Part shown: piece after piece, positions 4,875 through 58,288 of the stretch | Position numbering within the stretch: the first letter of the stretch is position 1 | How the letters are laid out: each line of letters starts with the position of its first letter | Assembly (NCBI GenBank): GCA_903887415.1 | Contig: CAISPO010000001.1 | Location: forward strand, 48,728 to 112,727 | Length of the DNA stretch: 64,000 nucleotides | Direction of reading: 5' to 3' | Origin: an uncultured Bacteroidota bacterium | Lineage (GTDB): Bacteria > Bacteroidota > Bacteroidia > Chitinophagales > Chitinophagaceae | Made by a program: the position numbers and the translations under genes | Notes under the pieces: model-generated | Database searches by the model: none | The model's input: only the letters and a program-made list of their open reading frames with translations | Told to the model about the DNA's origin: nothing

Positions 4875-5702
4875 TTAAAATAAAGACATCTGCGCCGTTC
4901 CGGCAGGCGAATAATAAACTTCAGCTTCCACACTGCCGGTGGGCATATGGTAAACGGGTGTTTCTTTGTAACGCGATGCGATCACAATATCGGTATCATC
5001 GGCGTGCTCCGCAAATAACTCCAGCGCAATGTGTGGCGAGTTATTGTCCTTAGAAAGATGTGAAAGATAGAGCAGGCTGAGCCCGGGGGGCTTATGTTTT
5101 ATGAATAGTTCCAGTGCCTGCCTGTTCGATAAATGGCCCTTGTCACCGCTTATGCGCCTTTTAAGGTGAGTGGGATAACGGCCATTTTCAAGCATATCCT
5201 CATCATAATTTGCCTCTAAGAAAGCGATCTGACATTGGCTGAAATTATTGACTACGTGACTGCAGGCGCTGCCAATGTCTGTAAACACACCAACATTTAT
5301 GCCATTGTAGCTTATCAAAAAGCTGTGCGGGTCAATGGCATCATGCAGTTTTGGAAACGCAAGAACGGACATATCGCCTATGTTCACCGGAGTGTAAGCA
5401 GCGAAACTATTTACCAGATCCGTGCTGATGCGAAGCCTGCTGTGGGCAAGGGTTGCCGCAGTAATAAACAAGGGCAGTCTATGCTTGTTAGCCAGCGTTT
5501 CAGCACCGTTGATATGGTCGCCATGCTCATGGGATATGAAGATCGCTTTTACCTTGTTTATATCCAGGCCCAGCCGTTTCATTCTTTTTTCTGTCTCCCT
5601 GCAGGATATGCCCGCATCTATCAGCACAGCATCCGTATCATTACCTATGTAATAACAGTTGCCGTTACTGCCAGAATTGAGCGATGCAATGAAAAGAGAC
5701 AT
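4875..5702 (-). CDS. MBL-fold metallo-hydrolase (YycJ/WalJ-like)
   Basis: SGSNGN, IDAG, SHEHGDH metal motif, HDAIDP, TDIG, LEANYD, GHLSN; C-terminal QMSLF. Confidence 0.9.
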   Translation of the reverse strand: MSLFIASLNSGSNGNCYYIGNDTDAVLIDAGISCRETEKRMKRLGLDINKVKAIFISHEHGDHINGAETLANKHRLPLFITAATLAHSRLRISTDLVNSFAAYTPVNIGDMSVLAFPKLHDAIDPHSFLISYNGINVGVFTDIGSACSHVVNNFSQCQIAFLEANYDEDMLENGRYPTHLKRRISGDKGHLSNRQALELFIKHKPPGLSLLYLSHLSKDNNSPHIALELFAEHADDTDIVIASRYKETPVYHMPTGSVEAEVYYSPAGTAQMSLF

Positions 5703-24379: not shown

Positions 24380-25087
24380 TCATTCAATTGGTTTTCTACT
24401 TGCTTTAACAAGTGAGAAAATGTGCATAAATACAGCCAGTGGCATGAATAAACCGGCAAGAAAGGTGTACGGGAAATCACCAAAGCCCCTTCTGAGCATG
24501 CTGAGGACCTCATTGGGCATAAAATAGGAGTGCCGCATCAATATAAAAACTACAATAGCTAATGTTGCCAGTCCTGCAAAGTTCCATAGTATGAATAATG
24601 ATTTGCCGATCTTAGGCTTTACAAACGTGAAGAACGCGATCAGTGGTGCAGTAAGCCCAATAAGAATATCAAAATTATGCCCTTCAAATGTTGCGGACTT
24701 TGGCGTAATACCGGCCATAAACATCCCCCATATGAGTAATTCTACAACGATCCTGAAGCTCTGAAAGAACACCGGCCATGAGTGTGGCGTATGGTCAATG
24801 ATTGTCTTGAATTTCTTATTGGTAAAGAAATAAAAAAAGAAAAGAAAAGCCGGAAGCACCAGCAATAGCGGTATGCGCGGCGGAAAAGAAACCTGCTCAA
24901 AAATCCCGGTAACTGAAATCGCGCTTATGTACACAAACCAACCTAAGAGCAACAGTGCTGTTCCTCTGATAAAGCGCTTCTGCTGCCGGGCATCCTTCAT
25001 AGCCCTTAACGACACATTCACCGCCATGAGGTAAACTATGATGATAAGCGCCAGCGCCAGAAATACAAAGCATGCCTGTAACATCAT
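24380..25087 (-). CDS. Hypothetical multi-pass membrane protein
   Basis: About 7 hydrophobic segments, QSFRIVVE motif; no family recognised. Confidence 0.75.
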   Translation of the reverse strand: MMLQACFVFLALALIIIVYLMAVNVSLRAMKDARQQKRFIRGTALLLLGWFVYISAISVTGIFEQVSFPPRIPLLLVLPAFLFFFYFFTNKKFKTIIDHTPHSWPVFFQSFRIVVELLIWGMFMAGITPKSATFEGHNFDILIGLTAPLIAFFTFVKPKIGKSLFILWNFAGLATLAIVVFILMRHSYFMPNEVLSMLRRGFGDFPYTFLAGLFMPLAVFMHIFSLVKASRKPIE

Positions 25088-54780: not shown

Positions 54781-54925
54781 GCAATGGGTTGTAGCTACAA
54801 TAATACAATAAAATATTTACTGATTTTACCAGCCTTATTGCAGCAAGGCAATTCAAATCCTCGGATAAAAATATCGTTATCTTAAGCCCGAATTGGCTTA
54901 AATATAAATAGCCGTGGGTGTAACC

Positions 54926-55488
54926 CACTAGTGTTCGAAACCTTATGTTGAATTAAGCAGGTGCGGCGCCCTTGCGGGGTCACCCCCGCACAGTGACAAT
55001 TGCCTTTATTATTTCATTTTCCAATTCTAATTCAAACTTTAGTTTAGCGATTTTGAACCCTCTTTATTCGAAGAGTTTGGCAGCTATTGAAATGCTAGTG
55101 CTGTCCGCTTTGGACAAAGCTTTTTCCTCTTTGAGCTCTTTGTTGTAGATAGAATATATGCTAAACAGCTTTTCAAAATAGTCAACATCAATTGTACAAA
55201 TGCGATCTCGAATTGAGTTATACTTACCATCTAAAATGTCAAATTGAGAGAAAGACTTGAATTGCGCTGACTGCAGAAAAGTTTCCATCACACGTAAACT
55301 GAGTTTCTCAGAATTAAGCATAGAAAACAATAGCAGCTTAAATATGATTTCTCCTGACAGTTTCTTCACTTGGGAGTCAATCTTGTTTTCAATGGCTAAA
55401 TCTCTAAACATGTTGGATGGAATAAGCCTAAGAAGATCATTCGTAGTCATATGCAAATTTGACACCTGCAAGGTTTCAAACACTAGTG
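54926..55488 (-). mobile_element. 563-bp internally deleted IS4-family element
   Basis: 19-bp terminal inverted repeats CACTAGTGTT(C/T)GAAACCTT; 9-bp flanking direct repeats ggtgtaacc / ggtgaaacc. Confidence 0.85.
54943..55450 (-). pseudogene. IS4 transposase remnant (N-terminus through the first DST motif joined to a degraded C-terminus)
   Basis: MTTNDLLRLIP...KLSGEIIFKLLLFS...KADSTS..KLFE*, then in-frame RGFKIAKLKFELELENEIIKAIV and frameshifted CGGDPARAPHLLNST*. Confidence 0.8.
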
Positions 55489-55625
55489 GGTGAAACCCAC
55501 GGAAAAAAGTAAAAAACCATCACAACCCAGAAAGGGTTGAATATGAAATACGCAAGCGCAAATTTGAAACGCGGGAGCGAACACATTGGTCAGCCCCTAC
55601 GGAATAATTATCCTATCTTTGTGCC

Positions 55626-55707
55626 GGTGCCAAACCTCGGGCTGCAACGGGTAAGCAATTACCAGGCTTGCAGCACCAACAAAGCCTCTGTGAAAACGGA
55701 GGCTTTT
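55626..55707 (+). ncRNA. Small RNA with its own promoter and terminator (Flavo-1-like motif, tentative)
   Basis: TATCTTTG -7 box at 55614; GCCAAA...GCUGCAA/UUGCAGC stem enclosing a GGUAA-GCAA-UUACC hairpin; terminator aaagcctc...gaggctttt. Confidence 0.6.
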
Positions 55708-55859
55708 GTGTACCCCAACCCCCTGAAGGGGGCTTCACTTATGAATATATCTTCAACGTAGATACATAACACCAGCTAAAGTGGTAGAGTTACAAACGAC
55801 AGAAACAATATTGCCCAATTATTATTCTGTGATGAAATTACAACCATAGCTAAATGCAT

Positions 55860-56942: not shown

Positions 56943-57005
56943 GGCGCAAAGGTAGGTGAATAAGGTAAAAGGTTGATATGTTAATATGTTAAAACGAAGA
57001 AGGCC

Positions 57006-58214: not shown

Positions 58215-58288
58215 GGCGCAAAAGTATGTTGTTAGTTGATTGGTTAAACGGGCAAATGGTTAAAACCATAATAAGATTTCCCAGGTCT

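Follow-up and report, generated by a model that had tools for sequence, protein, structure and literature searches.

To our knowledge, what has been learned about regulatory RNAs in the Bacteroidota comes almost entirely from gut Bacteroides and a single Flavobacterium, and we know of no characterised sRNA from Chitinophagia, a class abundant in lakes and soils. In enterobacteria, RybB and OmrA/B are short primary transcripts that open directly with an invariant seed, much more strongly conserved than the remainder, and continue into a structured body and a terminator; these RNAs depend on Hfq and target outer-membrane-protein mRNAs. In Bacteroides, the conserved single-stranded 5′ seed of GibS pairs with translation start regions (PMC7366714), and FopS RNAs, acting with the RRM protein RbpB, pair close to start codons and so repress translation (PMC11697453). 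Flavobacterial sigmaA promoters have a TAnnTTTG box at -12 to -5 (PMC9723704).

The locus described here lies on contig C1 of an uncultured Chitinophagaceae genome (G000), within the 64,000-nt stretch of DNA that was analysed as a whole (the window). A sequence-only reading had proposed a stand-alone small RNA gene at this position, with a promoter, a capped stem and a terminator. The perfect -7 box, the stem and the terminator are all present at 55614-55707, and comparison with related genomes strongly backs the gene (Table 1). On the comparative evidence, this is a genuine RNA gene family, absent from Rfam and limited to one branch of the Chitinophagaceae.

Table 1 Features of the small RNA locus (window coordinates).
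Feature	Position	Strand	Basis
-7 promoter box of the primary sigma factor, TATCTTTG (consensus TAnnTTTG)	55614..55621	+	exact sequence and conservation in homologues
Predicted primary transcript, ~82 nt	55626..55707	+	start set by box position (-12/-5), end by terminator U-run
Invariant 5′-terminal block GGUGCCAAACCUCG, presumed seed	55626..55639	+	identity across homologues; pairing with mRNA inferred
Two-tier hairpin, P1 (GCUGCAA/UUGCAGC)	55641-55647/55668-55674	+	covariation
Two-tier hairpin, P2 (GGUAA-GCAA-UUACC unit, 55650-55663)	pairs 55650-55654/55659-55663	+	covariation
GCAA loop of P2	55655-55658	+	sequence varies in homologues
Asymmetric internal loop of two-tier hairpin	within 55641..55674	+	sequence varies in homologues
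A/C-rich single-stranded linker ACCAAC, continuing into AAA of terminator stem	55675..55680	+	composition kept
Intrinsic terminator (11-bp hairpin, GAAA loop, U-run)	55681..55707	+	covariation
Terminator hairpin AAAGCCUCUGU-GAAA-ACGGAGGCUUU	55681-55706	+	sequence
Terminator U-run	55704-55707	+	sequence

Promoter, predicted start and fold

Taken alone, the -7 box occurs at chance level in the window (57 matches to TANNTTTG versus 56.5 expected), and the terminator hairpin is absent from the output of a simple terminator scan; the case therefore rests on comparison with relatives. The feature stands above chance because it is conserved, with 41 distinct copies, sharp boundaries and covarying stems. 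In 37 of the 41 distinct copies, the first G of GGUGCC is preceded, at a distance of exactly 4 nt, by a perfect TAnnTTTG, and a version with one mismatch is found at the equivalent position in three more, leaving only the second, tandem copy of one genome without a box. Upstream of the box, A-richness is the sole conserved trait, and no conserved regulator site was seen there. Since the sigmaA box spans -12 to -5 in Flavobacterium, +1 is predicted at 55626, the first invariant base.

By the same geometry, the mRNAs of two other genes in the window are predicted to be leaderless: rlmN, where the -7 box TACCTTTG (56947-56954, - strand) ends exactly 4 nt before the ATG (56942), and an Orn/DAP decarboxylase gene, where TACTTTTG (58219-58226, - strand) likewise ends exactly 4 nt before the ATG (58214).

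The 89-nt stretch carrying the gene folds at -39.4 kcal/mol (z = -4.34), with none of 200 shuffles equally good, and the reverse strand folds slightly less well (z = -3.51). A coding function for the unit was ruled out, as the sequence-only reading had anticipated in finding no credible ORF: the sequence contains no AUG, and no reading frame survives the 1-nt indels that separate homologues.

Homologues and taxonomic range

BLAST gave a single match for the sRNA in its own genome and, among 36 sampled genomes of the genus, detected it in 23, at 75-98% identity. Covariance models were then built, the first from 24 copies and the second from 62 matches (39 distinct). By covariance-model search, 32 of the 52 genomes available for the genus have the RNA, including 28 of 40 good-quality ones; the sRNA is dispensable, as about 30% of the good-quality genomes of the genus are without it. 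Strong scores were also obtained in seven of 150 other Chitinophagaceae genera, and no homologue was found with the covariance model in ~140 genomes representing 25 further families within the order. Matches of up to 32 bits outside the family were rejected as terminator look-alikes lacking the 5′ block. The 41 distinct copies come from eight genera, and nearly every carrier genome has just one copy of the sRNA. According to a pattern scan of named genomes, the carriers are Flavipsychrobacter/Taibaiella-type MAGs of Chitinophagaceae, mostly from fresh water; the records carrying it include the cultivable Flavipsychrobacter stenotrophus.

The boundaries of the gene are sharp. In alignments that include 40-nt flanks, similarity begins abruptly at the -7 box and ends right after the U-run, with flanks that differ between genomes, and in all homologues the covariance-model match spans exactly the predicted transcript unit.

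Two records with other labels, an ‘Asaia bogorensis’ MAG (L040, CALRKH020000059.1) and a ‘Candidatus Babeliales’ MAG (L043, JBIOKB010000071.1), also carry the sRNA, the former with the typical amidase and small-membrane-protein neighbours; both are probably mis-binned or mislabelled. Genome G006 has two tandem copies ~700 nt apart (L005:353-440 and 1048-1135). The downstream one has no -7 box and begins AAGUGCC, not CGGUGCC; it may be a pseudo-copy or be read from another promoter.

Covarying stems and an invariant 5′ block

Covarying homologues, whose absence the sequence-only reading had counted among the grounds for refutation, exist in number. Among 39 distinct sequences, double (compensatory) changes occur at least once at 20 of the 23 proposed pairs, and the proportion of paired cells is 97.7%, compared with 29-48% after the 3′ partners are shifted by 1-3 columns; none of 500 shuffles reached the observed values. 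Compensatory changes affect six of seven pairs in P1 (99.3% of cells paired), four of five in P2 (100% paired) and 10 of 11 in the terminator stem. Two stems had been offered for the lower part of the hairpin, and the alignment separates them: GCUGCAA/UUGCAGC is the helix that covaries (P1), while in the GGUGC/GCACC version 13 of 21 sequences disrupt the central pair and covariation is absent. A pseudoknot between the unpaired GCC and GGC, also suggested earlier, fails in the same way, with a central pair broken in 15 of 22 sequences that never covaries. The GNRA cap held up in part: GCAA is common, but UUGA, GUAAAA, CUAG or GAAA takes its place in some copies. Judging by this replacement, the GCAA cap is a stabiliser and not a conserved contact. 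In the linker, A/C-richness is retained among homologues (e.g. AACAACAA, UACAACAC).

At the 5′ end, GGUGCCAAACCUC is identical in all 41 distinct copies from the eight genera, while the stems drift. In the structure backed by covariation this block is single-stranded, with no part of it in a covarying helix, and none of its alternative pairings is conserved. An invariant block amid drifting stems is, on this alignment, the signature of a sequence-specific, single-stranded functional segment. The same 14 nt could in principle be conserved as DNA, as an operator or an initial-transcribed-sequence signal, and +1 to +14 is a typical position for a repressor operator. However, the block is not palindromic, is more conserved than the promoter box and is attached to stems whose covariation proves selection on RNA, making a DNA-level element the least probable of the readings considered here.

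Known RNA families

Rfam 15 (4227 models, including SRP, 6S, tmRNA and Bacteroides sRNAs) gave no gathering-score match in the 64-kb window. A search of 551 nt at E ≤ 10 returned only RNAI and Phe leader, chance-level matches (E above 1) in which cmscan had aligned the sRNA terminator to the terminators of these families. A resemblance to Flavo-1 (RF01705), raised in the sequence-only reading, was not borne out: the model has no match at the locus even at E ≤ 10, and no family, Flavo-1 included, matches there at its gathering score. The best Flavo-1 score of the genome (24.1 bits, E 0.019, against a cut-off of 42) falls elsewhere in the window, at 24789-24860 (+ strand); this match is probably noise and unrelated to the sRNA. 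SRP RNA (RF00169) was also rejected, the genome's copy being located at C7:39848-39946 (42.2 bits).

The guide RNA of dCas12f-sigmaE has a 3′ guide and a gene adjoining that of its effector (PMC13472631). A guide RNA of this kind, or a TnpB-like one, was rejected for the present locus, where the 3′ end is a terminator, the invariant part is at the 5′ end and the neighbours are an amidase, a small membrane protein, and an MFS protein or rlmN.

Genomic context and relocation

The usual order in the genus is a penicillin-amidase-family gene, a gene for a 116-aa membrane protein (no Pfam family) and the RNA, in many cases followed by an EmrB-like MFS gene in convergent orientation. Four other genera likewise retain the MFS neighbour, with its stop codon 13-30 nt from the 3′ end of the RNA, and the sRNA terminator is therefore probably bidirectional; read on the opposite strand, the A/C-rich linker would provide the U-run that this calls for. 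In most genomes no co-directional gene lies downstream of the sRNA.

These arrangements bear on two explanations in which the RNA would act only in cis. One is a leader or riboswitch controlling the downstream gene through the terminator: the order of promoter, conserved element and terminator resembles an attenuator, and a same-strand gene follows in G002 and G022. Synteny largely refutes this reading, because the next gene is convergent in most genomes (the MFS gene, or rlmN in G000) and differs between genomes where it is co-directional; no alternative antiterminator pairing and no Rfam match were found either, and we regard such a leader as highly improbable.

The other would make the locus mainly a 3′-end module, a bidirectional terminator between the small membrane protein gene and the convergent MFS gene, its short transcript having a local role only (transcriptional interference, or antisense to MFS read-through) or being a by-product. 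Across genera, only the MFS gene persists as a neighbour, ending 13-160 nt from the RNA 3′ end; members of the genus without the RNA have a plain terminator hairpin alone at that spot, and the A-rich tract before the hairpin is a potential U-run on the other strand. But a terminator needs no conserved promoter, invariant 14-nt 5′ block or covarying upstream hairpin, and the sRNA gene is intact and unchanged in G000 and G022, where it is no longer beside the MFS gene. A purely cis-acting module is thus unlikely, if less remote than a leader.

In G000 the usual locus is broken up: contig C74 carries the amidase and small protein genes, C72 ends with the MFS gene, and the sRNA is on C1 between an IS4-like remnant (DUF4372 fragment) and the 3′ end of rlmN. 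Nevertheless, the G000 sRNA is 100% identical to the copy in G017, while neighbouring proteins of the two genomes are 63-87% identical; the identity of the RNA despite relocation and diverged neighbours speaks for selection acting on the RNA itself and for a mode of action independent of its neighbours.

A REP-like palindrome, ACCCCAACCCCCTGAAGGGGGCTTC, is found directly after the sRNA terminator (window 55712-55736), with relatives (GAAGCCCCUUYAGGGGUUUGGGGUU) in 5′ regions on contigs C20 and C72 and in a related genome (L054), and a mini-IS4 remnant occupies 54911-55502. The palindrome and the remnant suggest that the sRNA gene was relocated via repeats. In G022, the sRNA terminator recurs 4227 nt downstream as a 35-nt copy of 97% identity (L039:831-865 and 5058-5092); the two terminator copies flank an insert of two genes, encoding a TPR/PMT_2 glycosyltransferase-like protein and a 571-aa protein (no Pfam family), located between the sRNA and the rlmN neighbourhood.

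Proposed mechanism and search for targets

With its own promoter and its own intrinsic terminator, separate from any mRNA, and a conserved, accessible candidate seed region, the gene has the features of a base-pairing sRNA, and its layout matches that of GibS (PMC7366714). We therefore favour, with measured confidence, an independently transcribed, trans-acting regulatory sRNA of ~82 nt with a 5′-terminal seed; of the mechanisms considered, pairing in trans through nt 1-14 is on balance the likeliest. The housekeeping sigma factor would initiate at G55626, 5 nt after the -7 box, and the first 13-14 nt (GGUGCCAAACCUCG) would remain single-stranded and base-pair with target RNAs as a seed, the two-tier hairpin and intrinsic terminator supplying stability and the 3′ end. 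Hfq was not found in the G000 genome, so any chaperone would be of another kind; the genome does encode one RRM_1 protein, at C3:35145-35354. It is from the architecture and its conservation that we infer expression, seed function, action in trans and an effect on targets.

In G000, seed-complement k-mers were not enriched genome-wide, duplex-energy ranking gave no outlier, exact seed matches close to starts occurred at chance level and no sponge-like multi-site cluster was present; the neighbouring loci of 39 genomes held no conserved seed site. The seed has no anti-start-codon (CAU) motif. Orthologues were compared between G000 and G138, a carrier from another genus, in 1109 reciprocal-best pairs, a low-power comparison that took in about a quarter of genes and a single distant genome covered over 2.4 of 3.56 Mb. 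Only secDF (codons 4-7) shared a start-proximal match of at least 8 nt among these pairs. Across 29 genomes, non-carriers have the secDF match and many carriers have lost it through synonymous changes; as the match does not track the presence of the sRNA, it reflects the K-G-L-V codons, and secDF was rejected as a target. The null result weakens the seed model but does not refute it.

Three other candidates were discarded. In a PagL-like gene the supposed ‘start’ proved to be internal, with conservation limited to the GFG codons, and at an internal site of the MFS gene synonymous positions vary; coding constraint alone explains both sites. The rpsU leader has no match to the seed. This rpsU (bS21) gene (L143:179-220, on C42 of G000) is preceded by a TACCTTTG promoter, and its short leader, CCCCAAAGACAAAAAGGGAAUCCUAAU-AUG, contains no canonical GGAGG Shine-Dalgarno sequence. 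The seed-complementary decamer GGTTTGGCAC occurs 20 times in the G000 genome against ~9 expected, an excess due mostly to several large repeat proteins encoded outside the window (contigs C49, C12, C34 and C42), in which it is found in frame every 126 nt or at multiples of this distance and encodes W-F-G-T; these look like putative two-component-regulator propeller repeats.

Protein binding is the reading that competes with base pairing for the invariant block. The RNA would then be a decoy, sponge or cofactor, with the 5′ block, perhaps together with the A/C-rich linker, as the recognition site of, for example, the single RRM_1 protein encoded in G000. A stretch of 13-14 nt that is invariant across eight genera, with no conserved target detected, is compatible with this, and in Bacteroides RbpB binds many sRNAs (PMC11697453). 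Each RNA here has a single copy of the motif, however, and lacks the repeated units typical of protein sponges. Invariant 5′ seeds are, moreover, also the rule among multi-target pairing sRNAs such as RybB and OmrA/B. We consider protein binding as the main function improbable, though less so than the other alternatives to pairing.

A different kind of address is raised by GAGGUUUGGCAC, the complement of the seed, which is 7/8 identical to a frequent -7 box variant of this lineage with its extension, TAGGTTTG(G)CA. Seven start-region matches of at least 7 nt fall at corresponding places in the two genomes; five are TAGGTTTG -7 boxes and a sixth overlaps a TACCTTTG box, because GAGGUUUGGCAC resembles the lineage -7 box plus its usual GCA extension. 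By a rough estimate, such resemblance is expected by chance in a few per cent of 14-mers, and we treat it as coincidence. That the 5′ block is addressed to promoter sequence, pairing with the non-template strand of open promoters or with read-through transcripts carrying internal promoters, seems very unlikely; if true, it would be a promoter-directed sRNA, an RNA recognising promoter elements.

Comparison with described small RNAs

The family, with its covariation-backed structure, predicted start, presumed seed and terminator, is fit for an Rfam entry. As a seed-type sRNA it would offer a test case for such action in bacteria without Hfq and without Shine-Dalgarno-led translation, and its patchy presence within one genus provides natural plus/minus strains for comparison.

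Among described RNAs, Flavo-1 (RF01705) is likewise a small structured RNA motif of Bacteroidota, differing in that its model has no match at this locus. The newly described Rfp18 and other ‘indep’ sRNAs of Flavobacterium psychrophilum come from outside Bacteroidales, as does the present RNA, and are similarly genus-conserved and strongly folded with sigmaA TAnnTTTG promoters (PMC9723704); they are from another class, Flavobacteriia, no sequence relationship is expected, and Rfp18 pairs via its third stem-loop, not its 5′ end (PMC9723704). FopS of Bacteroides is also a conserved Bacteroidota sRNA family in an Hfq-less background with an RRM-type RNA-binding protein (PMC11697453), but it is multicopy (14 paralogues) and targets susC-like start regions, whereas the present RNA is single-copy in nearly all genomes, and FopS-type seeds are reported to contain an anti-AUG motif that is missing here, as is any Rfam match. 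With RybB and OmrA/B the RNA shares the 5′-end block followed by a structured body, but no homology, and Hfq is absent here. GibS of Bacteroides thetaiotaomicron is alike in being intergenic and Hfq-free, with a TAnnTTTG promoter, a conserved single-stranded 5′ part, hairpins and a Rho-independent terminator (PMC7366714). The two have no sequence similarity, and GibS, restricted to Bacteroides, is ~145 nt long with an unstructured seed of 30-50 nt, compared with ~82 nt and a presumed 14-nt seed in the Chitinophagaceae RNA.
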